Part shown: positions 219 to 33,303 of the stretch, in pieces
How positions within the stretch are numbered: the first letter of the stretch is position 1
How the letters are laid out: every line of letters starts with the position of its first letter
Assembly (NCBI GenBank): GCA_043228905.1
Contig: JBHGNT010000010.1
Span: 18,538,001 to 18,602,000, forward strand
DNA from: Azolla caroliniana
Taxonomy: Eukaryota; Plantae; Polypodiophyta
Length of the DNA stretch: 64,000 bases
Reading direction: 5' to 3'
Translations under genes and position numbers: made by a program
The notes under the pieces: model-generated
The model's database searches: none
Told to the model about the DNA's origin: nothing
What the model saw: only the letters and a program-made list of their open reading frames with translations

Positions 219-499
219 TGTTGCAGACGAGGTCGTCTATGCGGAAGATCAAGAAGCATTCGATTGTTGTTGAATACCTGCGTATGACAGTTTCTAGTCG
301 TTGCACAGAGAGAGAGAGAGAGAGAGAGACACAAAAGACTTCTTATTCCACAAAGCAATAATACAACACCCAACCTTACAAAAAGGTTACAAGGTCACTA
401 TATATAGTGACCGACTTAGGGCAACTACCCTTTATGCTAATTACACAAATGGCCCAAAGGGATAGTGTGAATACGTCCATTATACACTTGTATTCGACA
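219..499 (-). repeat. Copia-1 3' LTR (281 bp)
   Basis: Near-identical to 4550-4832 (one AG microsatellite unit and about one substitution differ); adjacent PPT reads CCCATTACGGGGGAG on the minus strand. Confidence 0.95.
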
Positions 500-712
500 C
501 TCCCCCGTAATGGGCGTATACATGGGTTATCTGAGATTACAGGTATAGACTTGGGTTCTCGGACATATCAGCTTTGTTCGAGTCGGTAGGGTCCGAAGGC
601 AGAAGACCGAACTGGTCGGGTCGGAACAGTTGAAGCCGATCATTAAGGAACTGATGTCGGTTGTCGGGAACCATCCTGCTCTGTGTCCGGCTCTAACCGG
701 ACTGGTTTGTCG

Positions 713-3700: not shown

Positions 3701-3877
3701 GTCCAGCTTCTGCCACTCAATTGGTTTGTATCCTTCTGGAGGTTCTTCATTTTCGATGGGATCGATTTGCCCCTTGACTATGAGATAGTCCTGCATTTGC
3801 TCCTTCCAGAAGTTGAAGTTCGATCCATCGAACTTTCGTAGACTCATTTCTGACGAGCCGGATGTTGATGCCATCAA
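713..3877 (-). pseudogene. pol: Copia-1 gag-pol polyprotein lacking RT C-terminus and RNase H
   Basis: 1054-aa ORF almost identical to the Copia-2 ORF up to KDLGPARHI, then an ~832-bp deletion (Copia-2 ~16602-17433) causes a frameshift. Confidence 0.93.
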
Positions 3878-4535
3878 ATTTGGTTTCGGTTGACGAAGCT
3901 CGGTTCGGAGTTGACTACGAGCCTTGTTGGAGTGCAGCCGGTTGGCTCACCCGATATCGCTCTAGTCGGATTTGAACCCGAGTCGGTTCGGCTTCGGAAC
4001 TTGCTCGAATTGACTCCGGTAGCTTGAGGGACAGAACCGACTGGTCTTCCCGAATGTTGCCGAGTCGGAGTGAGCCCGGTTCGCTTCGGATATATATGCC
4101 GAATACCGATTATTGAAACCGATTATCTGGACCGATTCTGCTTCGGTTGACTGCAGCAACGAGAGAGACGGATCCAACTGATCCTCCCGAATGTCGATTA
4201 GCCAGATGAAGCACGAATTTGGGGTTGTTGTCTTCAGACCGATCTACACCGAGTGGTTACAATGAGCGGCGTTTGATTACCTCTTCGGATGCCGTTTAAC
4301 CGAATGGAGCACGATCGTGTCAATGTTGCACAAGGGGATTTCACGTCGAGCGGTTACGATCACAAGGGACAGAGTACAACCTGCTGGCTTACTCCAAGCG
4401 AAGATGATCTAACGCGATGAGATGCAAGCCTCGTTTTTCTTCTTCTTCTCTCTTCTTCGAATGACGCAGGAAACCGAATACTGTGCAGGCTGAGACGACG
4501 GCCGACAGCAGATTGAAGGACCGACTACTGTGCAG

Positions 4536-4547
4536 GCTCTGATACCA
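4536..4547 (-). promoter_or_regulatory. Copia-1 primer-binding site, initiator tRNA-Met
   Basis: Minus strand TGGTATCAGAGC, 2 nt from the 5' LTR. Confidence 0.92.
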
Positions 4548-4549
4548 GA

Positions 4550-4832
4550 TGTTGCAGACGAGGTCGTCTATGCGGAAGATCAAGAAGCATTCGATTGCTG
4601 TTGAATACCTGCGTATGACAGTTTCTAGTCGTTGCACAGAGAGAGAGAGAGAGAGAGAGAGACACAAAAGACTTCTTATTCCACAAAGCAATAATACAAC
4701 ACCCAACCTTACAAAAAGGTTACAAGGTCACTATATATAGTGACCGACTTAGGGCAACTACCCTTTATGCTAATTACACAAATGGCCCAAAGGGATAGTG
4801 TGAATACGTCCATTATACACTTGTATTCGACA
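4550..4832 (-). repeat. Copia-1 5' LTR (283 bp)
   Basis: Direct repeat of 219-499 with TG..CA ends. Confidence 0.95.
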
Positions 4833-7193
4833 TTCTCCACGCGTTGGCAAACGGAGAAGGCGAAGCAGAAGCCTTTTCAGCATATGAATCGGACTCCGAA
4901 GGGGAATACAACGTGCACATGAACTACCGTAGCAGCAACGAAACCCCGGGCGGACCGGAGGACGAAGGATCGGATACCTTACCGACACCGGAACCGGAAG
5001 TGCTAACGCTGGAACCCCCGGAACCAGCAGAGGAAGAGCGACCTCCGACACCGGAAGTCGAAGAGGAGAGGCCTCCGTCACCAAAAGAAGAGGAAAAGCC
5101 ACCGACGCCGAAAACAAATCGGGAAAGGCCACCGACGCCGGAGAAAATTCCGGAACGAGCACCAACACTGCCAGCCCGCACACCGATACCGGACGACGAC
5201 ATGCCGTTCCAGTACTCCAAGTATAGAGATGATCCGGATGCGGAAGCTCATGTGCACGCCTTTGAACAGACATGGGAAGCCAACCATGTGTCCCAGCGAT
5301 TGACCCCGGAGGAAGAAGAACGCTCTAAGATAGCGGAATTTGGCGTCACATTGGAGGGACCGACAACAAGATGGCGCCGGACGCAGGACCCGTCTACCAT
5401 CAACACCTTTGCAGATTTAAAAGCTAAATTCTTGCATTTTTTTCAAAAGGAGGTGGACCAGACCATAATGGTAGGCTTATTTTATACCATCCAACAGGAG
5501 GCAGGGGAGAGCATTCCCCAATTTGTCATCCGGTTTCAACGGATGCATAGTCAGCTTGCCCACGCACCCTCGGAGGAGGAATTACGGACTATATTCCTAA
5601 ACGCGCTCCGGGAACCCCTACGCACGGTTTGCACGGTAATTGACTTCCGCACAAGTACCATCGACCAGGTCATTGACCGGGTGAGAGAGATGGAAAAGAC
5701 AAGCTCCTGGCTCACATTGGGAGCACTCCAACGGGCGTTACCGTCCGATGAAGACCTCCGGTTTCGGCAAGCAATACAGTGCACAACCTGCTTGAATTCC
5801 GGACACTCGGCTCTAGAATGCACTATGAGGACGCAATGTGTAATCTGTCAATCCAAGAGCCATACAACGGATAGGTGCGAGTATAATCTGTTGAATCGGC
5901 AAGCACTGCCCGTCCGACAAATTGAGCCACGTAGCAGCCGGGATGAAGAAGACGAACGCTGGCGGCGAATGGACCGCGACCGACCGACACAGGATGTCTG
6001 GTATGGCGATCGACGGGAGAATGATGTCCGGTATGGTGATCAACGGGATAACTATGACCGGCATGATCGGTACCGGGATTACAATGGACGATACGAACAT
6101 TACGATCAGGAGCACTCCCCCGGGTATCGTCAACAACGGGAGGAATACGACAGATATAACGGGCAACCCCGTCAAGAGTACCGCAATAAGAAGAGCTATA
6201 ACAAAAAACGACATTTTAAAAAAGGCGGCTACCCCCGGGATCCAGAACAAGGAGCTCCAAGCAGCCAACCGGTCCAAAACCCCGCGCGTACCGCAGGACC
6301 TGCCCCGGGTACAACAGACAATGCCGAATCTAGCAATACCCGGAAAGCCTACTGCTACTACTGCCGACAGGAAGGCCATTATAGTAACCAATGTCCGGTG
6401 AAGAGCTATGAAAAACGACCGACGATAAATATGGTAGTCCCTAAGGTGGCAGATCTGCAGCAGGTGACCACAAGGTCGAAGGGCATGGCCAAGGAATGGG
6501 AGACGCAGGAGACTATCTGGAAACAAGCAACGGAATGGGTAAAGAAAGCAAATGAGCAGAATGTCACAGACTTACAACGGCAAAAGGAGAACATCGTAGG
6601 GCTTGCCGGCGGTAGTAACTCTGAGAACGAGACATGGCAGGCGTTGCAAGAATGCCAGATTACGTTGCCACTAGGAAGACTCCTACAACTCGTGCCTAGA
6701 TTCACGGAAGGACTGAAGACGGCCATGACGGCAGGAGAACCATCACCGGCACCGGTACTCTTCTCGAACCCGGAGGAGGGACCAACGGTGGTGGAAACCA
6801 TCAGTCCGGTAATCACTGCCATTGTAAAAGGGAAAGAACTCCCCGACACAGTTATAGACGGAGGCTCTGGGGTGAATGTAATAAGCCTCCGGACGTGTGA
6901 TGCCCTAGGAATCCATGAGTGGGAGCCGTGTCCGTTCTGGTTGCGGATGGCCGATACAAGCTCAGTGCGGCCGACATGATTAATACGGAAATTAGAAGTC
7001 ACCGTCGGCGGTCATACATTTCACATCTCGGCCGTAGTGCTACAATTACAGGCACAAGGCGCATACCTGCTATTGCTGGGGCGGCCATGGTTGAAAACAG
7101 CAGATATCAAACAGAATTGGCGGAAAAATATAATTACCTTCCGACAAGGAAAAGCCAAGGTACGGGTACCAACACAGCCAAGGACGACCACAA

Positions 7194-9133
7194 CCATTCC
7201 AGTGGACCGACACCGAGGATAGGGCGTATAGGGCCCTCAAGGTACTATTGTCGCAAGCACCGGTAGTGCAACCTCCGGATTGGAGTAAAGAATTTCACGT
7301 TTTCGTGGACGCTTCCGACATCGCAATCGGAAGCGTACTGATGCAGCTTACGGAACCAAAGTGGTACCGGCCAGTGTACTATGCCAGCCGAAAGCTATCC
7401 CAAGCAGAACGGAACTACTCTACCATGGAACGGGAAGCTCTAGGGATGATCTACAGTGTGACAAAGTTTCGGCATTATTTATTGTGAAGGAAGTTTTCCT
7501 TCCATGTAGATCATTCGGCACTCCTTTACCTGGTGTCCAAAGCGTCACTCACCGGCAAATTGGCCCGGTGGACCTTACTGTTACAGGAGTTCGAGTTTGA
7601 AATATTCCGCCGACCCGGTATACAGCATGCCATGGCAGATTACTTAAGCCGATTAGAGTCCGGAGAGACGGGTGACGGAGTAGCGGAGCTGTTTCGAGTC
7701 ACTACGGAGACGGCAGCAGATGAGACGGTGGCACAGGAAGACAAATGGCTCACAAATATGCACCAGTTTCTGAGCACAGGACTGCCTCCGGAAGAGATGA
7801 ACCGGGACGAACGGAAATGCCTGGCGGTGCAAAGCCGACATTTCTGCTTACTGCAAGACACACTGTACCACAAGGGCGCGGACGGCATATGGAGACGGGC
7901 GGTGCGCAACGATGAAAAGGAACTGATACTGAGGGAAGCCCACTGCGGAGTTGCCGGAGGTCACTATGCCGGAGATGCGACGGCCAAGAAAATATGGCAA
8001 AGTGGCCTATGGTGGCCAACGGCATTAAGAGATGCGGTACGATACGCAAAAGAATGTGACCTATGCCCGAGAATGGGCCAACCAACGGAGCAGGCTCGTA
8101 TGCCACACCAGCCGTACTACCACTCGAGCCATTCCAGAAGTGGGGGCTAGACTTTGTGGGACCGTTCAAGCCACCGGCAATGAGAACGGGTAATCGATAC
8201 GTCATCGTCGCGACGGATTACTGCACGAAATGGGTGGCGGCCAAAGCATTAAGGGACAACACCGCTGCGTCAACGGCGAAGTTTCTATATGAGTACATCT
8301 GGTGCCGTTACGGATGCCCAATTGAATTAATAAGTGACCAAGGGGGGCACTTTCTCGGCCAAGTAGTGGAAAGCCTGACGACATTCTATGTCGTGGTCCA
8401 CAAACGGAGCACACCTTACTATCCACAAGCAAACGGTTTAGCGGAATCAACAAACAAGACGCTCCAGAATATCCTCTGGAAGATCGTAAACGAAAACCGA
8501 ACGGATTGGGATACAAAGCTACATAGCGCGCTTTGGGCATACCGGACGGCATACAAGACGAGCATCCGAACAACACCGTTCCGGTTAGCATTCGGACTAG
8601 AGGCGGTAATGTCGGTGGAATTCCAAGTACCCAGCTTACGGATCCAGCTACGGGAACGACTGAACGAGAAGGAGTCGGAGGCAATACGGTTGACAGCGCT
8701 GTGTGAACTCGAGGAACAACGACTGGCCAACATCCTGCATTTAGAATTGGAGCAACGGCGACGGAAAGCATTTGTCGACCGACACAAGAAAGGAAATGAA
8801 AAAATGTTCGCAATCGGCAAACCGGTGTTAGTATTTCAGACCCGGATGGGCAAGATGCCGAGTAAACTACGGTTTAGATGGACCGGACCGTATTGGCTAA
8901 CACGGGAGTATAATGGGTCCTACCAGTTAGGGACACTTGCCGGCGAAGTGCTAGGCAAATGGGTCAACGGATTCCGGTTGAAGCCATATAGAGGACCGAT
9001 GCCTAAGAACCCATTTGAGCAAAGGACCGACACTAGTGAGGGAAACGGCAACCACCAAGACGGCAGAGAAGGCGAGCCGGTAATTGGGGAAAATGAGGCC
9101 GGTAAGGGTCCGGGAGGACCAACAGACAAGTAA
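7194..9133 (+). pseudogene. pol: Gypsy A RNase H and integrase (stops/frameshift)
   Basis: FHVFVDASDIAIGSVL..YYASRKL..EREALG (RNase H); HCGVAGGHYAG..CDLC (HHCC); catalytic core in ORF 8063-9133. Confidence 0.9.
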
Positions 9134-11607
9134 CGTCACACTAAATTAAATTATTATTAATAAAAAAAAAATAAAAAAATACAATCATGCAAAAGAGAGG
9201 AATGAATGGATGAAAGAGCGAGGAGCGAAAAGGTACGGAGTGGGCATTTAAAGCGCCACCACAGGACATAATGCTATTTTAGTACACGACATGCACACAC
9301 TCGAAAAAGGCGCCAGAATGCACAGACAAAAACCACTGCGCGTAGAGACCCTTTACTTTCGCGAACCCAGGAGCACAGAAGCACCAAGACGCTGCAAGAT
9401 CATCAGACGAGAACCTGCGCACAGAGAACCCCCGCCTTTTGAACTCTCTCTCTCTCAACCTCACTCTCATCACCATCCAACCTTGCCACCGCAATCCGAC
9501 CTCGACACAGAAATGGACCCACAAACGCTGTCGGAAGCCGCCAAGACATGGCTAAAGAAACACGGGCTCGAGGGCTTCTTGATGATGATGGAAGTACCGC
9601 CACACAAAGAAGCCGACAAAGTGATCAAAGAAATCGACACAGAGGTCATAACGGCAGAGGCGATTCGAGCGTTAACAGGCCTTCCGGAGGGAGGCATACT
9701 CACGATCGACAATCCAATCCCAGAGCAACTCATCAGGTATTTTGGTGAGTACTCTCTAGCCAGCAAGGGCTACCGGACACAGGGCGGCGGAGATATGCTG
9801 TTCCGCGAGATTGCTCGTGTGCTCCACGAATACGGCCACGTGTACCCTAGACCCCCTGTCATGCTGCAGAACCGGGCATGGATGATCATCGCCACCTATG
9901 AAGGGGTCAAGGTGGATTGGTCGGTATTGATCGTAGACGGGTTGTGTGCGGCGATCGAGATCGTCAGAGGCAAAGACGGCAAGGAAGGCCGAGACGGACA
10001 AAGGATATGGCACGCTGTAACGCAGTGGCTCACCTTGCTTGTGCCACCCGTCCAGCCCGTCCAGCCCAAGAAGCGAGGAAGAGTGGCGGACGGCACCCCA
10101 AAGACGGCTTCCAAACGACAACAGCTGTTGGCCTCTAAGGCCAGTAAGGGAAAGGCGGCGGATGCAGAATAGGCGGCAGCCGGAAGCGCCCAACGGAGGC
10201 GTAGGATGAACCACCGGCACAACCCGTAAAGGTTACACTCCGCCGACTGGTGAATAGAGAAGCGAACCCCTTGGCGGCAAAACTCAATGCCGGGGCTCAG
10301 GAAGAGGAAATAGAGGAGGAGCCTACGGAGCACCTCCAGCGACGGTCGTCGGCAAGGATCGTTGAGGCAGTCGGGAAACGTTCGGACCCTCAAACGGAGG
10401 GAACACCGGCTCCCCATACTGAGACTCCCACGCCAAGGAAGGAACCGGAACCGGTACGCATGGCACCGGAATCAGAAGCCCCGGCACCACCGGCAACACC
10501 GGCAAGTCCCATCCCGCCAGAGCCGGAAAGGTCAATGCAGCCTCCCTCGGCCAGCCAAGAAGAAGCGCAAGGGGAACCAGGACAGCAGGGTGGTCCACGA
10601 GCAGAAACGAAACTGCAACTCGGCGCAACCAGGCGGGACCACCCCTCTACAAGTGAGCCCATCTGTCAAACCTCCGTGCAAGCACAAGAAGGCACCAGTA
10701 GCTTGTGGCTCCGGTGGATAGGCGAACAGATAGCCGAAGCAGTGGGGTATATTGAGGCAGAAGAAAGAGCGCAAAGCGAACGGTTGCTCGTCACAACCGA
10801 ACAACTAGAGACGGCCCGGTCCAGAATCCGGTGCCTTGAAAAAGACTTGGATCAGGTCACGACAGAGATGGCCAAAATGGCCTTAACGGCAACACAAATC
10901 CAATCACCGGTGACTCCGGTAAGTGTATAGAATAAAGAAATGGATCGACCTGTACATAGCAATAAGACCCCGGCAACGGAAACCGTTCCGGCGAGAGATG
11001 CGGCGCAAGCCCAGGAGCTTGCGGAATTGAGAGACGAACTTGCCGCACAAGAAGCGCTAAGGAGCCGTGAACGGGAATTGAAGACAGCGGCCGAAGCCGA
11101 ATTAAAGAAGACTGCTGAGAACCTCCGCCGGGTAGAGGAGAGCCTCCGGAAAGGCCATCAAGCGTATGACCGGCTAAAGGAGGAGAAAGACAAAGTGCTG
11201 CAGGAAAAGGACAAGCAGCGGAAAACGGCGGAAACGGAGATTGAACGGCTAAAGGAAGAGCTCCGCCAGCAGAAGGACCGCGAGGACCGGGCCCGTCGAC
11301 AGATCAACGCACGGATCAATCAAAAGACAGATGATTTTGAGCACCTGCACCGGGACTACAAACGGCTGGAAACAGAGCATAAAGAACGGATGGCCGAGCT
11401 CCAGCAGGAAGTTGATCGGGCCGCGACGGCCATCGCCGACGAACGTGCGGAAAATACAAGACGCTTGGATGAGGCGGAGAAGGTCCGGATGGAGCTCCAG
11501 AGGCAGCATCAGGAAGAAAAAGAGAGAGCGTCAACAGTATTGCAAAAATTACAAAGCACATATCAAAGGCAATTGACGCATTACAAGGCGCAGGCGGAAG
11601 ACAACGT

Positions 11608-12311
11608 TGTCGTGCCTTTCGGCTCCGGATTGTTGCGTGAGTCGGGTGGGAACCGCCGAGGTTTTTGACTAGGAGGAAGAGGAATACAACTTAAGGCTAG
11701 TTATGAATAGTGGAAAGAGAAGTAAGATAGCAATCTCGTGAATCCCACGAGTTTAGTGTATTTAAAACAATATTTAGATTATAAGAGTAATTTAGATGGC
11801 AAAATTCGTGAATCCCACGAATATATTAGATTGATCAATCCCTGTATATTAATCAACACCCTTATACATATTTCTCTCCTCCTTATATAAAGATGGAAGA
11901 GGCTAAGCATGGCTTCATGCTTTTTCACCAAAAGTGTCCATGCACACTAAATGTGCATGTGATGCATTGTCATTTCCCAAGTATAGGGCTCATGCACGCT
12001 AGATGTGCATGAGTCACTTTTAATGTCACGTGCAAATAAAATATTCACACCCTAAAGAATACATGATTTTTACCTTTTAATAAAGGTATGTGTAAATAAA
12101 GGTCTTATACGTATTAAATCTATATGTATAACACTAAAGATAAGTTATTACAATGGTAAAGTTGAGGTTTATCTACGCGGAGGTGCAGGGTTTGAATCCT
12201 GCCCTATGCACGTGATAAATATTTTGATATATTATTTATTTATTTATATGTATCTAAAATCGGATATATTATTTTATGGTTTTCACGTAGTGTGAGGAAT
12301 ACACTACGACA
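11608..12311 (-). mobile_element. Solo LTR (704 bp) of the Trp-primed Gypsy group, 4-bp TSD ACGT
   Basis: Ends TGTCGT..ACGACA; ACGT at 11604-11607 and 12312-12315; both termini match LTR 23551-24539 in reverse orientation. Confidence 0.9.
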
Positions 12312-12590
12312 ACGTCAAAATCATCAAGCAACTAAAGGAGGAACGACAAGCGGCGGAAACAAAATCGCAATTGGGAACGGGCCGGATTCAGTCCATCCTC
12401 CGGGCATGGCTGAATTAGACAAAACACTTGATTGATGAAAGCTCCGTAAAATGGTGGACAAAGTGGGCACAAAACGCGACGGAACTCCAGTTGTTACGGG
12501 CAGATGTGGCAAACCGGCGAAAGGAAGGAGATGATTGTTATACGTTGACTTTCGAGGACTTCACCGCCATACGGGACGAGCTGGCCGACG

Positions 12591-12869
12591 TGTCGAATAC
12601 ATGTGTATAATGGACGTATTCACACCATCCCGTTTCGGCCATTTATGTAATTAGCATAAAGGGTAGTTGCCCTAAGTCGGTCACTATATATAGTGACCTT
12701 GTAACCTCTTTGTGAGGTTGGTTGTTGTATTATTGCTTTGTGAAATAAAGAGTCTTTTGTGTCTCTCTCTCTCTCTCTCTGTGCAACGACCTACATTCTG
12801 TCATACACAGGGAATAAACAGGAATCGAGTGCTTCAAGATCTTCCGCACTGACGACATTGCTTCCAACA
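12591..12869 (+). repeat. Copia-2 5' LTR
   Basis: TGTCG..CAACA, followed by Met PBS. Confidence 0.96.
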
Positions 12870-13457
12870 TCTGGTATCAGAGCCTGCACAGTAGTCGGTC
12901 CTTCAATCCGCTGTCGGCCGTCGTCTCTGCATTCGGTTTCCTGCGTCATTCGAAGAAAGAGAGAAGAAGAACAAAAACGAGGTTTGCACCTCATCGCGTT
13001 AGATCCCCTTGCTTGGAGTAAGCCAGCAGGTTGTACTCTGTCCCTTGTGATCGTAACCGCTCGAGGTGAAATCCCCTTGTGCAACTTTGACAACAACCCA
13101 AATTCGTGCTTCATCTGGCTGATCGACATTCGGGAGGATCAGTCGGATCCGTCTCTCTCGTCGCTGCAGTCACCCAAAGCCGAATCGGTCCAGATAATCG
13201 GTTTCAATAATCGGTATTCGGCATATATATCCGAAGCGAACCGGGCTCACTCCGACTCGGCGACATTCGGGAAGACCAGTCGGTTCTGTCCCTCAGGTTA
13301 CCGTAGTCAATTCGAGCAAGTTCAACAATACATATATCCGAAGCCGAACCGACTCGGGTTCAAATCCGACTAGAACGATATCGGGTGAGCCAACAGGCTG
13401 CACTCCAACAAGATTCGTAGTCAACTCCGAACCGAGCTTCGTCAACCGAAACCAAAT

Positions 13458-16400
13458 TTGATGGCATCAACATCCGGCTCGTCAGAAATGAGTCTACGAA
13501 AGTTCGATGGATCGAACTTTAACTTCTGGAAGGAGCAAATGCAGGACTATCTCATAGTCAAGGGGCAAATCGATCCCATCGAAAATGAAGAACCTCCAGA
13601 AGGATACAAACCAATTGAGTGGCAGAAGCTGGACAGAATCGTCCGCGCCACGATTCGGATGCACCTATCGGAATCGGTATACTTCACGGTGCAATCGTGT
13701 ACGACAGCATTCGAACTGTGGAAAACACTGTCGGACACTTACGAAAAGAAGGTCGCCGCAACGAAGATGTTTCTGATCCGGCGCCTCTACAACTTGCGGA
13801 TGAAAGAATCCGACTCGGTCCAAGCACACCTCAATGAGTACGAAAGCATAAGCTCCCAAATCTCGTCACAGGGGACGGCAATCGAGGATGAACTCAGAGC
13901 AATGATACTCATGAGCAGCCTTCCCCCATCATGGGAAACTTTCGTCACAACCGTGTGCAACGCGTCAACCACGGCTGTTAAATACTCCGAAGTCACGAGC
14001 GCAATCCTGACCGAAGCAGCTCGGAGAAAGTCTTTCGCCAAAGACTCAACAGACGACGCCTACGTAGTACAAGGTTCGACAGACCGATCGAACATACGAG
14101 GACGAGATTCCTCACGGCCGCCGAACAATCAGCGAAGACGGAGCCAGTCACGGGATAACCGAATCTGCAACTATTGCAAGAAACCCGGACACATCAAAGC
14201 CGACTGCCGCGCACTCAAGAACAAGAACAACAAGAAGAGTGGCTGGCATGAGGAGATCAATTACGTCAGCTTCTCAGCTGATGTACTACCGGACGACCCG
14301 AATATACTATCAATAGAAAATCCAGTCGGATCAGAAGTTCTACTCACGACTGAAGAATCGAGCACATGGCTCTTGGATTCGGGCGCGTCATTTCACGTGA
14401 CTCCTCATCGATCCCAATTTCGGCAATATACGATCCGTCACTCCGACTCAGTTCGAGTCGGCAACTCACAACACTGTGACATCGTCGGAATCGGCACAGT
14501 AGAGCTCAACCTTGCAGGGGGCTCTACACTTGTACTCCACAATGTCCGACATGTACCCGAGCTCACAAGGCCATTGATCTCAGTCGGACAACTAGATGAA
14601 GACGGCATTCGTGCCGGTTTTTCTTCGGGAGGGTGGACACTCCACAGGGGGAACCTCCTGCTTGCTAGAGGACCCAAGATACACTCACTGTATCCGTTAC
14701 ATGTTACGCTCAGAGAGGGTAACCTGTTTTTGGTGGATATTCCTGTGTCATCATTATGGCACCGAAGATTAGGACACCTCAGCAAGGCCGGCATCACGCA
14801 CCTATCTAGCGCCGGATACATCCCCAAACTCTCCTTCTCGGACCATCAATTCTGCGAGCATTGCCAGTATGGCAAACAAGTAGCCGCATCACACCCGACA
14901 TCAGCACCAAGAGAAACGAGACCTCTCGATTTAGTCCATTCGGACGTCTGTGGCCCAATGCCGCATCAGTCTCTAGGCGGTGCCTCTTACTTCGTCAGTT
15001 TTATTGACGATTCGACTCGAAAGGTGTGGGCTTATCCAATTCGCACCAAAGATCGTGTCTTCTCGATCTTCACCGATTGGCTCGCTATGGTAGAAAATCA
15101 AACCGACCGAAAGCTGAAATGCCTTCGGACAGACAATGGGGGAGAGTTCAAATCCGATGAATTCGTCAAATTCTGCCGACAACGCGGCATCCGACGTGAA
15201 TTTACGGCACCACACAGTCCGGAGCAAAACGGGATTGCCGAACGAATGAATCGGACAATCCAAGAAAGGATAGTTTCCATGCTCCAACACTCCGGACTAT
15301 CGGATGGCTTCTGGGCAGAGGCTCTACTCACGGCAGTACACATAATCAATATGTCGCCAAGTAGACCTCTAGGACTTCAAATTCCTCAGGAACTATGGAT
15401 CGGCAGTAAGCCGAATTACGACAAGCTGAGGATCTTCGGATGCGAGGCGTACGCCCTCATTCCGAAAGATGATCGCCGAAAACTTGCACCTCGGTCCAGG
15501 AAATGCATTTTCCTTGGATATGGATCAGACGGCGAAATGGGATACCGACTCTGGGACCCCGAACGCAGACAAATCGTTCGAAGTTCGGACGTTGTGTTCA
15601 ACGAGTCGGCTATGAATCCATCAGTCGAAAAACCGATCGAAGTCCGAAGGGTAACATTCTCCGATGTGCCGACCCTTCAAGAAGGCCCCGCTCTCAACAC
15701 ACGGTCAGCTTCACGGGTAGCTGAACCTTATACTACCGACTCGGACAACTCTGACTCGGCACAGCCGAATGATTCGGTTTCGGACCATCCGACCTCGATA
15801 CCCGATGCGACCAGTCCAATCATACCTCAACGATCCGGGAGACTGTCGCAACCTCCGGAGAGGTATTCTCCTGGAATTTTCTTCACCGACGCCGGCGAAC
15901 CGACGTCTTACGAAGAAGCATCGACATCTGTCGATTCGGCCACCTGGCATCTGGCGATGGAGTCGGAAATGCACTCCATCCGGGCAAACAAGACTTGGGA
16001 TCTGGTCGAATTACCTAGGAACCGACGTGCTCTTCCTTGCAAGTGGGTTTATCGACTAAAAGAGACGTCTGATTCGACCACCCCAAAGTACAAGGCCAGA
16101 TTAGTTGCGAAGGGCTTCCGACAAGAATATGGCGTCGACTTCGACGAGATTTTTTCACCAGTGGTGAAAATGACAACCCTTCGTCTTCTGCTCGGCGTCG
16201 TGGCAGCCGACAACTTGGAGCTGATTCAGTTAGATGTCAAAACAGCCTTCCTCCATGGTGATCTCGAGGAGGAAATTTATATGGAGCAGCCAAAAGGCTT
16301 CGTGGCAACTGGCCAAGAACATCTAGTCTGCCGACTCAGGAAGAGTCTATACGGCCTCAAACAGGCACCGCGACAATGGTACAAGAAGTTCGACGACTTC

Positions 16401-17474
16401 ATCCAATCAATCGGCTTCTCCAAAAGCGATGAGGACCATTGTCTCTTCACCAACACAGCTCGAGATGGATCACCCATCTTCCTCATCATTTACGTGGACG
16501 ACATGCTAATTTCTGGACGCCACGCGGGCGAACTTGCCGATCTCGTTCGGCAACTGCGGTTGAAGTTTGCCATGAAGGACCTCGGTCCGGCACGACACAT
16601 CCTTGGCATGAAGATTAGTCGGCATCGCAATAAACGACATCTTTTTTTGTCTCAGACCGACTATATCGGACGTGTCTTGGAACGCTTCAACATGCAATCA
16701 GCCAAATCTGCTTCAACCCCACTCCCTATGAATCTTCGGCTCTCTCAGCGAGACTGCCCGACATCCGGTTCGGAGGGGGAAGATATGAAGTCGGTACCGT
16801 ATGCACCGGCAGTCGGCTCCCTTATGTACCTGATGGTCGCGACACGGCCTGACATCTCTCATGCCGTAGGAGTCGTTAGCAGATTTATGCACAATCCTGG
16901 CCGATCGCATTGGAACGCAGTCAAGCATGTGTTCAGATATCTGGCTGGCACAAAAGACCATGGCATTCTTTTCGGACCGAACCGAACCTCAGGCGTAGTC
17001 GGTTATACCGACTCGGACTTCGCCGGCTGTATAGACAGTCGGAAATCAACAACCGGATACTGCTTCAAATTCGGCAATGGAGCAATCTCGTGGAAGTCGA
17101 AACTTCAGGAGTGCACAGCGACCTCAACGACCGAAGCAGAATATGTAGCTGCGTCCGACGCAGCAAAAGAAGCTTTGTGGCTCGGTCGGCTGGCGCACAC
17201 GTTTCGACAAGTCGAACATGACTCGGCTCCAGTTGTCTACAGCGACAGTCAAGGTGCTGTTGCCTTGTCGAAAAATCCGGTTCACCACAACGCCTCCAAA
17301 CATATCGACGTTCGATATCACTTCGTTCGGGACTGCGTCATTTCAGGGAAAATCGGTCTAGAGAAAATATCCACAACCGATAATGTCGCAGATGGAATGA
17401 CCAAATGTCTCTCGGCAGACCGTTTTCGGTCTCTTCGGCATCAGATGGGCGTAACGACAAACCAGTCCGGTTAG
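13458..17474 (+). CDS. pol: Copia gag-pol polyprotein (Gag, PR, INT, RT, RNase H), 1338 aa
   Basis: Uninterrupted ORF: CNYCKKPGHIKADC, WLLDSGASFH, GAG-pre-integrase WHRRLGH..CEHC, HSDVCGP/RTDNGGEF/NGIAERMNR, YVDDML, YTDSDFAG..EAEY..KHIDVRYH. Confidence 0.97.
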   Translation: MMASTSGSSEMSLRKFDGSNFNFWKEQMQDYLIVKGQIDPIENEEPPEGYKPIEWQKLDRIVRATIRMHLSESVYFTVQSCTTAFELWKTLSDTYEKKVAATKMFLIRRLYNLRMKESDSVQAHLNEYESISSQISSQGTAIEDELRAMILMSSLPPSWETFVTTVCNASTTAVKYSEVTSAILTEAARRKSFAKDSTDDAYVVQGSTDRSNIRGRDSSRPPNNQRRRSQSRDNRICNYCKKPGHIKADCRALKNKNNKKSGWHEEINYVSFSADVLPDDPNILSIENPVGSEVLLTTEESSTWLLDSGASFHVTPHRSQFRQYTIRHSDSVRVGNSQHCDIVGIGTVELNLAGGSTLVLHNVRHVPELTRPLISVGQLDEDGIRAGFSSGGWTLHRGNLLLARGPKIHSLYPLHVTLREGNLFLVDIPVSSLWHRRLGHLSKAGITHLSSAGYIPKLSFSDHQFCEHCQYGKQVAASHPTSAPRETRPLDLVHSDVCGPMPHQSLGGASYFVSFIDDSTRKVWAYPIRTKDRVFSIFTDWLAMVENQTDRKLKCLRTDNGGEFKSDEFVKFCRQRGIRREFTAPHSPEQNGIAERMNRTIQERIVSMLQHSGLSDGFWAEALLTAVHIINMSPSRPLGLQIPQELWIGSKPNYDKLRIFGCEAYALIPKDDRRKLAPRSRKCIFLGYGSDGEMGYRLWDPERRQIVRSSDVVFNESAMNPSVEKPIEVRRVTFSDVPTLQEGPALNTRSASRVAEPYTTDSDNSDSAQPNDSVSDHPTSIPDATSPIIPQRSGRLSQPPERYSPGIFFTDAGEPTSYEEASTSVDSATWHLAMESEMHSIRANKTWDLVELPRNRRALPCKWVYRLKETSDSTTPKYKARLVAKGFRQEYGVDFDEIFSPVVKMTTLRLLLGVVAADNLELIQLDVKTAFLHGDLEEEIYMEQPKGFVATGQEHLVCRLRKSLYGLKQAPRQWYKKFDDFIQSIGFSKSDEDHCLFTNTARDGSPIFLIIYVDDMLISGRHAGELADLVRQLRLKFAMKDLGPARHILGMKISRHRNKRHLFLSQTDYIGRVLERFNMQSAKSASTPLPMNLRLSQRDCPTSGSEGEDMKSVPYAPAVGSLMYLMVATRPDISHAVGVVSRFMHNPGRSHWNAVKHVFRYLAGTKDHGILFGPNRTSGVVGYTDSDFAGCIDSRKSTTGYCFKFGNGAISWKSKLQECTATSTTEAEYVAASDAAKEALWLGRLAHTFRQVEHDSAPVVYSDSQGAVALSKNPVHHNASKHIDVRYHFVRDCVISGKIGLEKISTTDNVADGMTKCLSADRFRSLRHQMGVTTNQSG

Positions 17475-17667
17475 AGCCGGACACAGAGCAGGATGGTTCC
17501 CGACAACCGACATCAGCTCCTTAATGATCGGCTTCAACTGTCCCGACCCGACCAGTTCGGTCTTCTGTCTTCGGATCCTGCCGACTCGAACAAAGCTGAT
17601 ATGTCCGAGAACCTAAGTCTATACCTGTAATCTTAGATAACCCATGTATACGCCCATTACGGGGGAG

Positions 17668-17946
17668 TGTCGAATACATGTGTATAATGGACGTATTCAC
17701 ACCATCCCGTTTCGGCCATTTATGTAATTAGCATAAAGGGTAGTTGCCCTAAGTCGGTCACTATATATAGTGACCTTGTAACCTCTTTGTGAGGTTGGTT
17801 GTTGTATTATTGCTTTGTGAAATAAAGAGTCTTTTGTGTGTCTCTCTCTCTCTCTCTGTGCAACGACCTACATTCTGTCATACACAGGGAATAAACAGGA
17901 ATCGAGTGCTTCAAGATCTTCCGCACTGACGACATTGCTTCCAACA
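17668..17946 (+). repeat. Copia-2 3' LTR
   Basis: Direct repeat of 12591-12869. Confidence 0.96.
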
Positions 17947-18412
17947 CGACGACTTCCAAGTCCTGGCGGATGAATAGCTGGCGCAGGTCAGGCAGCTCGT
18001 AGCTCAGCTAGATGATGATAAGCTGGACGCTCAAATCCAGTTTGAAAGCTACGAGTGGTCCGGGGTTCAGGAAGAAAAAGCACGGGAAGCGGCAACAGTT
18101 AACCTTAGTGATGAGGAACCGTCGCCGGCTGAAGGCCAGCCGGGAACCAGTCAACCGGAGACCACTACGACGAAGGGAGCAACGACGGAGACGCCGGTGT
18201 CAGAGCAACAAACGGAGGAGCAGCCGCAGCAGCCACCAACGGACCCGCTACAACAGACATCAACAGAGCAACAACAACAACAACAACAACAACCACTTCC
18301 AGATGAACCATTGGAGCCTCTCGAACAGAGCATTCTGGATATTTTGGACGAAGAATAGCAAGGGTCGGTTGTGGATTCGACGTACAAGGTACTGTCCCAC
18401 GAGCGTGCCATG

Positions 18413-18847
18413 TGTTACCGGCCGACAAAGGAGTCCAGAGTGGGAAACGGAGAGTTATTTAAGTACTAGGAATGTGGTTGTAATTAAGCTATGAGTGTGG
18501 ACGGACGGACCGGAATCGGTATGCCGTTCCGAATCCGGACCGATCCCAAACAGGTGCGGATGGCACCGTTTTGTAATACAGACCGAAAACCTATTTAAAG
18601 GCCCGGATACAATGTAATGAATAGCGGTTAATTAATAAAAGCTTAGCGTTGTTATCTCTCTGTGTTAATTACCGTTTTGTCTTAATTGTTATATCTTACG
18701 CGTGTGATTATGAAAGACGATCATGCTAAGTAACTTAATGAAGTCGAATTAAGCGTTGAGTCTAATCCGGTTGCCGTAACACCCTTTGGTGAAGTGTCTT
18801 CCGTAGACACCCTGTGTTAGGCCATTGTCCGGCCCTAAGAGTTAACA
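18413..18847 (+). repeat. Gypsy A 3' LTR (~435 bp)
   Basis: TGTTA..TAACA termini; plus-strand TATA-like TATTTAAA (~18593) and AATAAA (~18634); right end fixed by resumption of Copia-3. Left end is inferred because the partner LTR is outside the window. Confidence 0.72.
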
Positions 18848-20692
18848 TCAATGAGTTTTCCATGCATCAATCGGTTGAAAAGTCGATCGAAGTCCGAAGG
18901 GTAACTTTTTTCGATGTGCCAACCCTTCTCGAAAACCCAGCACACAACACACGGTCAGCTTCACGGGTAGCTGAACCTTCAAACACCGACTCAGAGAATT
19001 TTGACTTGGCACACCGAATGCGACTAGTCCAGTCATACCTCGAAGATCCGTGAGCCTGTCGCAACCCCCAGAGAGATACTCTCCTGGCATCTTCTTTACG
19101 GACGTCGGAGAATCGACATCATACGAAGAAGCATTGGTGTCAGCCGATTCGGCCACCTGACATCTGGCGATGGTCCATGGAATCCGAAATGAACTCCATT
19201 CGCGCAAACAAGACTTGGGACCTGGTCGAATTACCGAAAAATCGACGCGCTCTTCCGTGTAAGTGGGTCTATCGAATTATCGAAAATTTGACACATTCTT
19301 GGTATGAAGATAAGTCAGAATCGTAATCAATGACAATTGTTTCTGTCCCAGACCGACTACATTGGACGTGTCCTCGAACGCTTCAACATGCAGTCAACGA
19401 AATCTACCTCTACCACGCTCCCTATTCATACTTGGCTATTTCAGCGAAACTGTCTGACATCCGGTCCGGAGGGGGAAATTATAAAGTCGGTATCGTATGC
19501 ACCGACTTTTGGCTCCCTAATGTACGCGATGGTCGCGACACAACCTGATATCGCTCACGCCGTGGGAGTCGTCAACAGATTTATGCATAACCCCGACCAA
19601 TCGCACTGGAACGCAGTCAAGCATGTGTTCAAATATCTGGTGGGCACAAAAGACCTTGGTATTCTATTCGGCCCGAACGACATCTTAGGCGTAGTCGGGT
19701 ATACTGACTCTGACTTTGCGGGCTGCATAGACAGCAATAAATCGACAACCAGATATTGTTTCAAATTTAGTAATGGAGCCATCTCATGGAAATCAAAACT
19801 TCAAGAGTGCACCACCACATCAACGACCAAGGCCGAATACGTAGCTGTGTTCGATGCGGCAAAGGAGGCCTTATGGCTCAGTCGGCTGGCTTGGACATTT
19901 TGACAAGCCGAAATTGACTCGACTCCAATTGTGTACCGTGCCAGTCAAGGTGTTGTTGCTCTGTTGAAAAATCCAGTTCATCGCAACGCCTCCAAGCATA
20001 TTGATGTTCGATATCATTTCGTTCAGGATTGTGTCATTTCAGGGAAAATCGGCCTTGGTACCTACAACCGATAACGTTGCGGATGCAATGACCAAGTGTC
20101 TCCCGACGGATCGATTTCAATCCCTTCAGCATTGAATGGGCGTAATGAAGAATCAATCCGATTAAATCGGACACTCAGGACATTTCTCGGACAATAGACC
20201 TGGATATTTCGAACTTCAGCTTTAGCCTCTCTGAACTCGGCCAATACGGCCTTCTGCTCTTCAGAGTTCACCGACTTGAACGAATTCTCGATTGTTCCTA
20301 AACCTTGTATCAATATGTATTGTACATTCATTTTGGTCTACAGATTTCAGATGTATACGCCCATTACGGGGGAGTGTTGAATACAGGCTTCTAATGGACA
20401 CATTCACACTGTCTCCTTTTGTACACACTAGGCTTAGGCTATTTATGTAAATAGTGAGAAAGGCAGTTGCCCTAAGTCAGTCAGTATATAAACCAACTTT
20501 GTAACCTAGTTAGTGGTTGTTGCTTTAAGTTGAAATATACTCGTGACATTGTGCCCAATTGTCTCTCTCTTTTGCGTACTAGTTGTATTGTTTGCCTTTG
20601 CTACCATCAAAGTTACGATCTTGCATCCTTTCTTGATCTTATCCTAGAAGAGTGTTGATCTTGTTCCGCATTAGATGATGGTGATCCCAACA
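18848..20692 (+). mobile_element. Copia-3: decayed 3' half of an older relative of Copia-1/2, with 3' LTR 20375-20692
   Basis: Homologous to Copia-2 from the INT-RT linker to RNase H (YTDSDFAG); RT core deleted; same PPT CGCCCATTACGGGGGAG; LTR TGTTG..CAACA. Confidence 0.9.
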
Positions 20693-28699: not shown

Positions 28700-31600
28700 A
28701 TGGAACAAGTTTTGAACGCAGTTGGAACGATCTCTCCAAATGAGACCTCTCAACCCCAATCCGCATCTCGCACACAAGCTGAGATCACTATTGAGCAATT
28801 GCTCACTACTACCTTGAATCAATTGGCCGAAATGAGACAGGCCAATATGGCATTGGAAAAGAAATTCCAAGAATTAACTATTGAGTCCAAGAAAGAAGGT
28901 GAACCTTCCTTCGTAGTCACGCCTTTCAAGGGAGATAAGAAAGAAAGAACTGAGGAGGCCATTAGCACTTGGCTTGGTCGTTGGGAGTCTCACTTTGAGC
29001 TTCATCCCAAGCCCGATGCAGTAAAAATTGGTTATGTCGGTCGTGAGTTAGGTGGCCGAGCTGCTGCTTGGTGGCGTGGCCTAAGGACCACAAAAAACTT
29101 ACCCACAACTTGGGAAGGTTTCGTTGATGTTTTTAAGAAACAATTCTTGCAGCCACCTTCTCAAACCGAACAAGCGCAACACTTGCTCACATTGTCTAGT
29201 AAGCCATTTACCTCTCTCGAGGATTATGTGCATCACGCACGGACCCAGATCCAAAAATCGGGACTTACGGGTGAGAAATGGTTTGTCGCTTGTTTTTTGA
29301 ATGGTATTCCCAATGGGGATTCGTTGATGTTTTTAAGAAACAATTCTTGCAGCCACCTTCTCAAACCGAACAAGCGCAACACTTGCTCACATTGTCTAGT
29401 AAGCCATTTACCTCTCTCGAGGATTATGTGCATCACGCACGGACCCAGATCCAAAAATCGGGACTTACGGGTGAGAAATGGTTTGTCGCTTGTTTTTTGA
29501 ATGGTATTCCCAATGGGGATTATCATTGGATTGTCCATGACAAGGACCCCACAACTTTCGAGGAAGCCGTCAACATTGTGTTGCGATACCATAGGACTTC
29601 CAAGAAAGACCACAATAAACCTGAGTTCGCCAAAACTCCGAATGTCAAGTTCATTGGGAAACGTAAGCAATCCAGTGACACTCTTGACCGCGACTCAAAG
29701 AAACCGAACCTCTTCTGTGCATATTGCAAGAAGCGGGGCCACACAAAGGATACCTGTCGTCGTCTTGAGAGGAAGTCAATGAACACCCCTCCTCAAGACA
29801 AATCTACGAGTCACACAGGTGAGTCTTTTGATATTGTTGAAGTTCATACCAATCACTTAAGTTTATGTGAATGCACTTTTCCTTCACATTTACTTGGACC
29901 TAATGATTTACTCCGAGCAGTCGGATATATCAATGGAACACAAGCACATTTCTTGTTTGATTCCGGTAGTTCTCACAATTTTCTTAATGATCACTTTGTG
30001 CAGCAAATGGAGCTCCACATAAACGCAAGTGATCATATCTATCAAGTTCACATGGCAAATGGAAACGTTCAATACATCAGTGGCATTGTTTGTCAACTGC
30101 CAATTCAAATAGATACTTATTTGGAGAAGCTTGACTTTCATGTTATGAAATTACAATCCACAGATGTCATTTTAGGATATCCTTGGTTTTTTAATAAAAA
30201 CCCTTCTTTGTCCATTGATTGGGTTAATCACTCAATCACATTTGAACTTAATAATTGTAAACATTTTATTCAATGTTCCAAACTTCCTTCGCATTCACTT
30301 GTGTCTTCTAAATCTTTAAGTGAGTATTCTAGTTCATTAATTTATTCGTGTGTAATTGATCCTGCGGTTCAATTTTATTATTTTAATATTGACGCCACAC
30401 AATTACCACATTTTGAGCAACGATTACTCGACTCTATTTTAGAGGATTTTCAAGATGTGTTTCCTACTGAATTACCGCTTACTTTACCACCTAAACGTAA
30501 TGTGGACCATCAAATTGAACTCATCCCTGGGGCTGCTCCTGTGAGCATTCCACCTTACCGACTTAGTCGATTAGAAGAGGATGAGATCGCTAAACAACTT
30601 AAGGAATACTTGAGTATGGGCCACATTAGGTATAGTAAATCACCTTGGGGTGCGCCAGTTCTATTAGTCAAGAAGAAGGAAGGTTCGTGGCGAATGTGTA
30701 TCAATTATCGCCGTTTGAATAAAATGACAATTAAGAATGCATATCCATTACCTCGTGCCGATGATTTGATTGATCGTTTGCACGGGGCTCGATATTTTAC
30801 GAAAATTGATTTACGAACTGGTTATCATCAGATTCGCATCGCCGAGGATGATATTCCTAAAACCGCTTTTCGTATGCGCTATGGCCATTATGAGTTTTTA
30901 GTCATGCCGTTTGGGTTGACTAATGCTCCAGCCACATTCCAACAAGCGATGAATGATGTTTTCCGAGATCAACTCGGTGATTTTGTTGTCGTCTTCTTGG
31001 ATGATATTTTGATATATAGCCGTACCTTGCAAGATCATGTTCAACATGTTCGATTTGTTTTGCGAAAGTTGCGTGACAACTCTTTCTATGCAAAACATTC
31101 AAAATGTGACTTCTTCCAAAAATCTATTGTGTACCTAGGTCATTTAATTACAGAAAATGGCGTTGAAATTGAACCTTCTCGTATTGAAAAGGTTAAACTT
31201 TGGCCCATTCCTCGTAATATTCGTGAACTTAGATCATTCTTAGGGTTTGTTGGATTTTTACGAAAATCAATTCGTAACTATTCCAAATTGACTACGCCAT
31301 TAACTGACCTTTTAAAAGGTCATCCACGTAAGTCTGTCAAACCAATTTCATGGAATGAACAACTTAACAAATCATTTGAGACACTCAAGGAGCATGTGTG
31401 TCAGGCTCCCACTCTTCTATTACCAGACCCTTCTAAGCCTTTCTCAATTGAAACCGATGCTAGTGATTATGCTATTGGTGCCGTTCTTTATCAAGGTGGT
31501 CACCCTATTGCTTTTGAAAGTAAGAAGCTTGATGCTGCTCAATCTCGGTATTCGGTTCAAGAGAAAGAGTTGTTTGCGGTGATACACGCACTTAAAACAT

Positions 31601-33303
31601 GGAGGCACTATCTCTATGGAAATAAATTTGTGGTTACAACAGACCATCAATCATTAAAGTATTTTTGTGACCAGCCCGATCTTGTTGGTCGTAAAGGCCG
31701 TTGGGCTGACCTTATGCAAGATTTTGATTTTTCCATACGCTATCGCAAGGGTTCTATGAACACCGTTGCTGATGCTCTTAGTCGCATTAAAGAAGTTAAC
31801 ATGCTTAGCTTCACGGAAATAAAATCTGATCTTTTAGATCACCTTCGAGGGAAATACCTTGATGACAGTTATTTCTCAAAATACTGGACGAAAGTCGAAT
31901 CTGGTTTAGATGCCGATACTAGCACCCTACCCTCGAAGGCGACCTTTCACATTACAAACGGTTTGCTCTACCGTAGTGGGAAGGTCTGTGTTCCATATTT
32001 ACCAAATGTTAAACAGAAAATTTTTCATGAATGTCATGATGCACCATCTGCTGGTCATCCTGGAATACAACGCACACTCGTTCTCATCTCGTGTACTTTT
32101 TTCTGGCCTAAGATGCGCTCTGACGTGCATAAATACGTAACTCAATGCTTACAATGTCAGATTAATAAGTCGGAACGACTTAAAGCTGCTGGTCTTTTAC
32201 ATCCCTTAGATATTCCCAACAATAAATGGGAAAGTATCTCGATGGATTTTATTGTTAGTTTACCTCGTACACAGAGGGGTCATGATGCCATATGGGTTGT
32301 CGTTGACAGGCTAACAAAATTAGCTAGATTTATTCCTACAAAAACCACGGTAACCGCTCAACAGTTGGCTTATCAATTTGTTGATGAGTTATTTCGTTTT
32401 TATGGATTACCGATGGATATTGTTAGTGATCGAGATTCCAAGTTTACTAGTGACTTTTGGACTCAGGTCTTTAAGAAACTAGAAACTACGTTGAGCATGA
32501 GTTCCGCAGATCATCCTCAGTCTGATGGACAAACTGAACGAGTTAATCAAATTATTGAGGACATGCTTCGAGCTTATGTAGCAAAAACCCTTTCTAAGTG
32601 GGAGCAATACCTTCCTATCTTAGAATTTGCCTATAATAGCTCTAAACATACATCCACTGGATATAGTCCTTTTATGTTGATGTATGGTTTTCAGCCACGT
32701 GCCCCAGTTGATGTCACGATTCATCGTGATACATTAGACAGTACACGCAATTTTTTGCAAGACATGAACCAAATGTTGCATATTGCCAAAGAAAATGTCA
32801 AGACAGCTCAAGATCGTGCTCGATTTTATGCTGATCAGGATAGACGTCCTCGTGCATTTACTATTGGTCAAAAAGTTTTTTTGCGTGTCCCGACTGATTC
32901 TACGTCATTATCTACGGGCAAGTGCGCTAAGTTAGCCCCACGATATTGTGGCCCATTTGAAATCCTTAAGCGAGTTGGGTCATCTGCTTATCACCTTGCC
33001 TTACCTCGTAACGTTGGTATTCATCCTGTTTTTCACGTCAGTCGTCTAAAACCATTTTTAGGCTCTGGTGATAACACCATCACAATCCAAGATCTTGTAA
33101 CATTAGAGGATTTTTCTTACAAACCTCATGTTCCTGAACGAATTCTTGATTCTCGTACTAAACGTTTACGTTCTAAAGAGATTCGGCTATTCAAGATCAA
33201 ATGGATGGATAAACCTATTGATGATGCCACATGGGAACGCGAGCATTCGCTTAAGGCACAATTTCCTCACTTTATATTGCAAGAGTGCAATCTTTTGAAG
33301 TAG
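28700..33303 (+). pseudogene. pol: Chromovirus gag-pol (Gag, PR, RT, RNase H, INT, chromodomain) frameshifted by a 200-bp tandem duplication
   Basis: CAYCKKRGHTKDTC, LFDSGSSHNF, MPFGLTNAP, FLDDILIY, ETDASDYAIG, HPQSDGQTE, GPF..HPVFHVS, PERILD..IKW..DATWE. Removing one 200-bp copy leaves 4404 bp = 1468 codons. Confidence 0.94.
29121..29520 (+). repeat. Exact 200-bp tandem duplication in gag
   Basis: 29121-29320 equals 29321-29520. Confidence 0.95.

Follow-up and report, generated by a model that had tools for sequence, protein, structure and literature searches.

Priming of the second DNA strand by a polypurine tract (PPT) is the rule, near-universal in retroviruses and LTR retrotransposons, according to the accessible portions of two papers (PMC5371799; PMC6317226), and general background on tRNA primers is given in the accessible part of a third (PMC7472051). 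Yeast Ty3, as presented in the accessible text of PMC5371799, has the order gag-PR-RT-RH-INT, starts its minus strand on a tRNA through a bipartite interaction involving the T arm, and, just upstream of U3, uses a purine-rich piece of its RNA to prime the plus strand. The Ty3/gypsy clade described here, found in a window of Azolla caroliniana DNA (the whole stretch analysed, 64,000 nucleotides), shares with Ty3 the domain order, the tRNA-primed minus strand, the primer site just upstream of U3 and a predicted bipartite tRNA interaction involving the T arm, but in it a tRNA match replaces the PPT. In addition, the second tRNA-binding block of Ty3 is complementary to the tRNA on the RNA and serves minus-strand initiation, whereas the match in the clade is sense on the RNA. 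In HIV-1, as reported in the accessible text of 10.1101/2021.08.29.458043, primers that escape removal end up copied at the termini of the cDNA, RNase H cleaves the tRNA one base away from its junction, one tRNA base stays at U5, and two-LTR junctions show the PPT at the U3 side and the tRNA at the U5 side; the remnants of the clade are alike, but at the U3 side they hold the 3' end of a host tRNA where HIV-1 has the PPT. The self-priming Tcn1/Tf1-type elements and the half-tRNA primers are known departures from standard LTR-retrotransposon priming, although they concern the minus strand only and none of them, as far as the accessible text of PMC6317226 goes, replaces the plus-strand primer.

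Among plant elements, an Arg primer-binding site (PBS) is dominant in TatIII, Ogre and part of Retand (PMC6317226, accessible text) and is common to our clade. The classical Tat elements (TatI-III, Ogre and Retand) have an additional RNase H, whereas Pfam searches of protein P0001 and of the window ORFs detected only the RT-linked RNase H, whose acidic residues appear intact in P0001 at what we take to be the motif positions. The link to Tat/Ogre drawn in the first-pass annotation holds, in consequence, for the Arg PBS and not for the additional RNase H domain. The Tat lineages Z1/Z2, which are devoid of this domain, resemble the clade in this respect (PMC10508981; PMC13468544; accessible text), and the clade may belong to them. 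Athila differs by its tRNA-Asp/Asn PBS, against Arg in the clade, and Phygy/Selgy by a 4-bp target-site duplication (TSD), a Trp or Ala PBS and no extra ORF, against the 5-bp TSD, Arg PBS and 3' extra ORF of the clade (PMC6317226, accessible text). In the accessible descriptions, the OTA-group plant non-chromoviruses (Tat Z1/Z2, Athila) are like the clade in having no chromodomain, a 5-bp TSD and a 3' extra ORF. A missing PPT is not reported in the accessible text of the OTA-group papers (PMC6317226; PMC10508981; PMC13468544), and the terms PPT, polypurine and tRNA have 0 occurrences in the main text of the two Tat papers (PMC10508981; PMC13468544). The first-pass annotation knew of no LTR lineage of this kind and, in agreement with it, no description of a tRNA-primed plus strand, or of a tRNA copy replacing the PPT, was found in the literature covered, which lies mostly outside subscription journals and repeat-database reports and was in part accessible only as partial text.

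The elements of the clade have gag, RT, RNase H and integrase in gypsy order, LTRs of the TG...CA type, a TSD and a tRNA PBS after the 5' LTR, as expected of Ty3/gypsy, and they have no polypurine tract before the 3' LTR. No Chromo match was obtained in the integrase ORF of the motif-bearing element, while the element at 29275-33300 has one. In a quick tree of 136 rows, with SH-aLRT support only and with no labelled Tat or Athila references, the clade, a branch supported at 100, groups with liverwort and unnamed proteins and stands apart from an angiosperm/pine group, and the chromoviruses are a separate branch. The nearest named relatives are liverwort proteins (44-52%). A search of the genome (G000) for a PPT-bearing sister lineage, made with a 60%-identical protein, gave 43 scored matches at 55-56%, no closer than the clade itself.

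The main finding of this work is that this clade has no PPT and carries, two bases before its 3' LTR, the sense 3' end of tRNA-Arg(UCU), an arrangement from which we infer that a host tRNA is likely the plus-strand primer. In the window, the motif and its spacer take up 44 bases of the plus strand (18369-18412), with the sequence and coordinates first described. Positions 18369-18380 reproduce, in the sense orientation, nt 47-58 of tRNA-Arg(UCU) (T loop and 5' side of the T stem; 11 of 12 identical), and their complement on minus-strand DNA is a predicted auxiliary tRNA-binding block. They are followed by an insert of 13 nt (18381-18393, with a 4-bp hairpin at 18382-18392), placed exactly between nt 58, presumably the methylated base where RT stops, and nt 59 of the tRNA. 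Positions 18394-18410 copy nt 59-76, including the CCA and with one C missing, and would, read on minus-strand DNA, likely act as a second primer-binding site; the A at 18402 (G to A) is private to the window copy, as 29 of 30 family copies have the G of the tRNA. The spacer between CCA and LTR (18411-18412) is TG in this element and GG, AG, CG or 4-5 nt in other families. The order proposed at first pass, namely a T-arm-like block, a 13-nt insert, an acceptor-end block with CCA, TG and the LTR, was thus recovered letter by letter. The 3' LTR (18413-18847, plus strand, 435 bp) is paired with a 5' LTR that an LTR search located 60 bases upstream of the window (G000:C10:18537506-18537940, L031/L056), also of 435 bp and with 16 differences between the two, and is followed by the 5-bp TSD TCAAT (18848-18852), whose partner copy lies left of the 5' LTR. 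Since the LTR pair and TCAAT at both flanks define the element, the 3' LTR starts at 18413, two bases after CCA, as had first been assumed, and no start was found further downstream behind a purine tract; the CCA end is in this way the mirror image of a PBS. An LTR end at 18781, guessed from an inverted repeat, was ruled out, as 30 family copies match the window up to 18847.

The absence of a purine run before this LTR, also pointed out at first pass, was confirmed in the window: purines make up 8 of the 18 bases directly before the LTR, and the longest purine runs in the 200 nt upstream measure 7 and 6 nt, both inside the ORF. Elsewhere in the window, elements of three other lineages, namely a copia, a chromovirus and an unrelated gypsy, each have a purine-rich tract before the LTR. 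A second copy of the motif (51730-51771, plus strand) stands before the LTR of a different family, which starts at 51772. Inserted in this LTR is a gypsy element (51892-58990) whose RT is only about 25% identical to that of the clade; it has an ordinary purine tract and a DUF4100 match in gag, and lacks an obvious tRNA PBS.

The window copy of the element is old and broken. Its gag-pol (4839-9133, plus strand; gag, zinc knuckle, RNase H and integrase) is missing about 1.25 kb over the RT domain and has broken frames, and two copia elements are nested in it, at about 12590-17946 and at 219-4838. The 5' part of the extra ORF region (9252-12589, plus strand) is interrupted by later insertions, and its 3' end (17947-18358, plus strand) closes with a stop at 18356-18358, 54 nt before the LTR. 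Taken as a whole (window 9252-18358), this sense ORF has about 900 codons; its middle resembles a coiled coil, its tail is rich in Gln, Pro and Glu, and an acidic motif at its C-terminus is conserved between families. It gave no Pfam match above the cut-off. Ten families were tested, and in 8 of them the stop of the extra ORF lies 48-54 nt short of the LTR, in shifting frames; the other 2 gave no clear reading. Because the stop precedes the motif in shifting frames, the motif is non-coding: the overlap with the extra ORF listed at first pass does not exist, coding constraint is ruled out, and conservation is not confined to the amino-acid level. An off-frame ORF (18012-18494) does span the motif, but it is interrupted in 12 of 30 copies. 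The plus-strand orientation first given for the ORFs and TATA stands, gag-pol, the extra ORF and the TATA-like box being all sense.

A T-arm pattern search returned 55 genome sites, all of which were read, and five of them are tRNA-Arg(UCU) genes of one type (L082, L088, L089, L091 and L121). The host does have the tRNA whose 3' half with CCA had been recognised in the motif, and none of the five genes encodes CCA after nt 73, in keeping with what the first-pass annotation stated for eukaryotic tRNA genes. The 1-nt gap against the tRNA, at first a caveat, is real and present in every family. ARAGORN found no complete tRNA gene in the window. As for the 5' end of the element, the PBS of the window family lies after a 7-nt spacer and matches tRNA-Arg(UCG) over 13 nt, and copies of this primer occur at U5; tRNA-Arg(CCG) was discarded as the 5' primer, since it has one mismatch whereas UCG fits all 13 nt. 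The 5' PBS is UCG-type in the window family and in most sampled families, and UCU-type in some others. The spacer between 5' LTR and PBS ranges from 2 to 11 nt between families (L031:9641-9660, L330-L361, L373-L386) and the U3-side spacer is mostly 2 nt, so that integrase or RNase H must handle unequal ends. The genome also contains tandem arrays of diverged tRNA-Arg(UCU)-like copies, with repeat units of about 0.5-0.7 kb (G000:C11:0.69-0.70 Mb, L106-L110; C22:1.43-1.50 Mb, L123-L126; C4:19.5 Mb, L092-L098), which are pseudogene or SINE-like and derive from the same tRNA that the elements use.

The 14-nt junction core has 1,935 exact genome matches with the TG spacer (control 0) and 895 with an AG, CG or GG spacer (control 1), about 2,800 sites in all, of which a minority, such as L090, may be ordinary 5' PBSs read on the opposite strand. 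With such controls, the motif is not a product of chance. The T-arm block and hairpin precede many different LTRs in all of the first 30 loci of the 1,935, and about 33 motif clusters were recognised, 4 non-LTR rows (L255, L265, L362, L363) having been dropped from 37 before alignment A1. An upstream protein match gave the orientation of the motif at 63 of 153 sites, 62 of them forward and 1 reverse at 1.8 kb. To avoid circularity, three families were reached through their 5' primer copies, independently of the motif, which was nevertheless present at 8/8, 6/7 and 5/5 of their 3' LTRs (19 of 20), the exception looking like a solo LTR. Positions 50-56 are tRNA-identical in 28-32 of 33 family representatives, though no search pattern fixed them, and in one family three further bases differ from the tRNA. 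The insert measures 13 nt in 25 of the 33 representatives and 14-16 nt in 8, and its stem covaries, with both-side changes in 3 of 4 pairs and 91% of cells paired, a score reached by 0 of 500 shuffles, which as a control take no account of relatedness. A wobble bias is not clear among the substitutions of the T-arm block (21 of 45). Both the 1-nt gap and the hairpin are kept in every family, although a plain PBS needs neither. Folded as minus-strand DNA, the motif was no better than shuffles in 3 of 4 cases, with a z of -1.4 in one.

This PPT-less clade has transposed recently and is active, as all 5 of the LTR pairs compared have 0 or 1 mismatch over 456 nt and integrase gave 150 matches at 98-100% identity, many of them in frames of about 1,950 aa. 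In metagenome contigs at least 121 stretches carry the motif; 118 come from one assembly series and hold families like those of the genome, and the other 3 among those listed are without LTR or hairpin context. Sequencing runs of two organisms matched in contigs only, with no RNA run among those listed having the sequence, and these metagenome and run matches do not demonstrate breadth beyond close relatives. Two matches in viral contigs were both attributed to chance. Some families (L142, L158, L200, L292/L402) keep the cassette with no adjoining protein match and are likely non-autonomous partners, at least one of them only about 3 kb long, and in L200 both LTR edges carry the UCU end, each with a 2-nt spacer. 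Four motifs (L408, L409, L425, L427) are cut inside the hairpin by apparent ends of other LTR elements, which is possibly an insertion hot spot, in a search whose pattern selected for such cases.

The second line of evidence comes from primer copies retained at LTR ends. The genome was searched for exact matches to a pattern made of the UCU end in its true tRNA form, which includes the C missing from the elements, then two bases and TGT. Nine sites were obtained, of which 7 lie at U3 edges and represent 4 independent events, all of them from exact-pattern searches only, and the other 2 are ordinary PBSs. In the first event (G000:C2:12.00-12.02 Mb), 57 nt of tRNA-Arg(UCU) plus CCA extend past the anticodon; duplications of 99.6-99.9% have brought this copy to three, one of which stands before an LTR with PBS and gag behind it, and a contig from a sequencing run, possibly of the source sample itself, crosses the C2 junction and is identical to it along 48 nt. 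In the second (L292), 56 nt stand before a 5' LTR, with the same 4-nt spacer as at the 3' junction of that element. The third (L371) has exactly 18 nt, of a second isodecoder type, before an LTR and then a UCG PBS. The fourth (L369/L370) is a two-LTR-type junction formed by U5, the 11-nt spacer of the family, 1 nt, the tRNA 18-mer, AG and U3, and an element that has a 5-bp TSD contains two tandem copies of it; the motif of this family differs from the tRNA at several bases, and therefore the 18-mer is not element-derived. In all four events the missing C is present, the hairpin is absent and the remnant joins the LTR through the family's own spacer, and in the first three the elements are UCG-primed, yet the remnant is UCU.

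As a positive control, 100 sites with tRNA-Arg(UCG) plus CCA were found, and the 30 examined were all at U5 edges, with a copy length of exactly 18 nt in 21 and of 17-19 nt in 27 of them. Conversely, the UCG end with a 2-nt spacer occurs at 2 sites genome-wide, both read as U5 PBSs; neither this pattern nor the 30 sites examined yielded a UCG copy at a U3 edge. A one-mismatch UCU search returned 20 sites, 4 belonging to the first two events and 16 read as U5, of which 10 were placed there through LTR mapping; for the other 6, as for the U5 assignment of L498, spacer type is the only basis. L090/L293 and L368 were rejected as U3 remnants, being U5 PBS copies. A search for clean two-LTR junctions gave 2 matches, against 4 and 7 in the control, one due to chance and one ambiguous. 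Among the 100 UCG sites, 30 (L437-L466) show a 5' PBS extended to exactly 18 nt and then internal or foreign sequence, apparently failed plus-strand transfers, and three such PBSs run directly into a telomere-like repeat or the leader of another element. At two places (L309:1-116, G000:C597, and also G000:C8:19460356-19460389), two LTR right ends are joined head to head through UCG primer copies.

Since tRNA-Arg(UCU) copies are fused where the second strand begins, it is likely that host tRNAs prime both strands. We hypothesize, with slightly less assurance than for the primer itself, that the whole lineage has probably dropped the PPT and starts both strands on host tRNAs, frequently two distinct arginine tRNAs, of which the second would anneal to single-stranded minus-strand DNA at a site split by a hairpin at 58/59. 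The minus strand would start in the usual way on tRNA-Arg(UCG), or on UCU in other families, and minus-strand transfer and removal of the RNA by RNase H would expose the motif complement on minus-strand DNA. The tRNA could then pair with this complement through nt 59-76 (17 bp, with one tRNA base bulged) and, beyond the looped-out hairpin, through nt 47-57 (11 bases), a pairing over 17 + 11 bases for which RNA parameters, taken as a proxy, predict -48.7 kcal/mol, compared with -31.9 kcal/mol for the UCG string one base short. RT would extend the CCA end of the tRNA through the spacer into U3, RNase H would normally remove the tRNA and integrase would trim the spacer. Where removal of the tRNA fails, the finishing minus strand would copy the attached tRNA, usually over 18 nt and sometimes further, which would leave the remnants described above. 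The first-pass annotation had offered three options for the motif, and the cross-family conservation and the tRNA-derived copies at U3 edges lend support to the first of them, a second cellular tRNA priming the plus strand.

The second option, a tRNA-like primer made by the element itself, is the alternative that survives best, but we consider it unlikely. Here the element's RNA would form a T-arm-like hairpin that survives RNase H as a PPT substitute, and the tRNA copies at U3 would arise by RT switching onto the tRNA via shared 3' bases. Indeed, the motif RNA of the window folds into a long hairpin (-14.7 kcal/mol) and the covariation of the inserted stem would agree with it, as would a metagenome contig (L234) in which an element-type 17-mer without hairpin follows foreign sequence; L430, which has just CCA-TG at a two-LTR-type junction, fits a tRNA or an element source. 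However, there is no covariation in the T-stem-like self helix (78% paired, with both sides changed in a single cell), no acceptor 5' strand lies near the motif, and the primary sequence tracks a tRNA supplied in trans. Of 40 matches to element-type remnants beside LTR ends, 32 were read, covering one junction class, and none was a remnant at a 5' LTR, against the 4 tRNA-type events with their tRNA bases absent from the element. Elements primed by UCG would otherwise have no reason to hold the UCU tRNA.

That the usual plus-strand primer is a 3' tRNA fragment (about 18 nt or the 3' half) instead of the whole tRNA appears improbable. The fact that 2 of the 4 U3 remnants are exactly 18 nt would favor a fragment, but this is the usual copy length of the minus-strand primer too, the two remnants of 56-57 nt pass the anticodon, and the block matching nt 47-57 is conserved. 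The third option of the first-pass annotation, in which the motif pairs with the 5' PBS of the element or aids strand transfer while another signal primes the plus strand, seems to us highly improbable: in families with a UCU-type 5' PBS both sites are complementary over about 11 nt, but the option fails for the window family, whose 5' PBS, as in most sampled families, is UCG-type (-25.0 kcal/mol for the 13-bp UCG match against -9.8 for UCU), no PPT or other candidate primer was detected at the LTR edge, and the tRNA remnants at U3 would be left unexplained. Equally hard to credit are reversed roles of the two sites, with antisense genomic RNA packaged, the UCU site as first-strand PBS and the UCG site priming the second strand, since despite the longer match and typical 2-nt spacer of the UCU site and the symmetry of the ends, complete in L200, the coding regions and TATA-like box lie on the sense strand and the numerous UCG copies of 18 nt that run on into internal sequence are consistent with a failure of plus-strand transfer at a normal 5' PBS; were the roles reversed, one strand would still be tRNA-primed on DNA.

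If plus-strand priming by tRNA-Arg(UCU) is correct, this would be the first retroelement with a tRNA primer supplied in trans for its plus strand. The success of such a lineage, which numbers thousands of copies, with a tRNA primer on a DNA template would mean that the second-strand priming step can be swapped, and would offer a natural system in which to study primer choice and primer removal by RT and RNase H. It would also matter for annotation tools that score PPTs. Finally, it predicts that the tRNA-Arg pool of the host, or its fragments, may control two steps of transposition.
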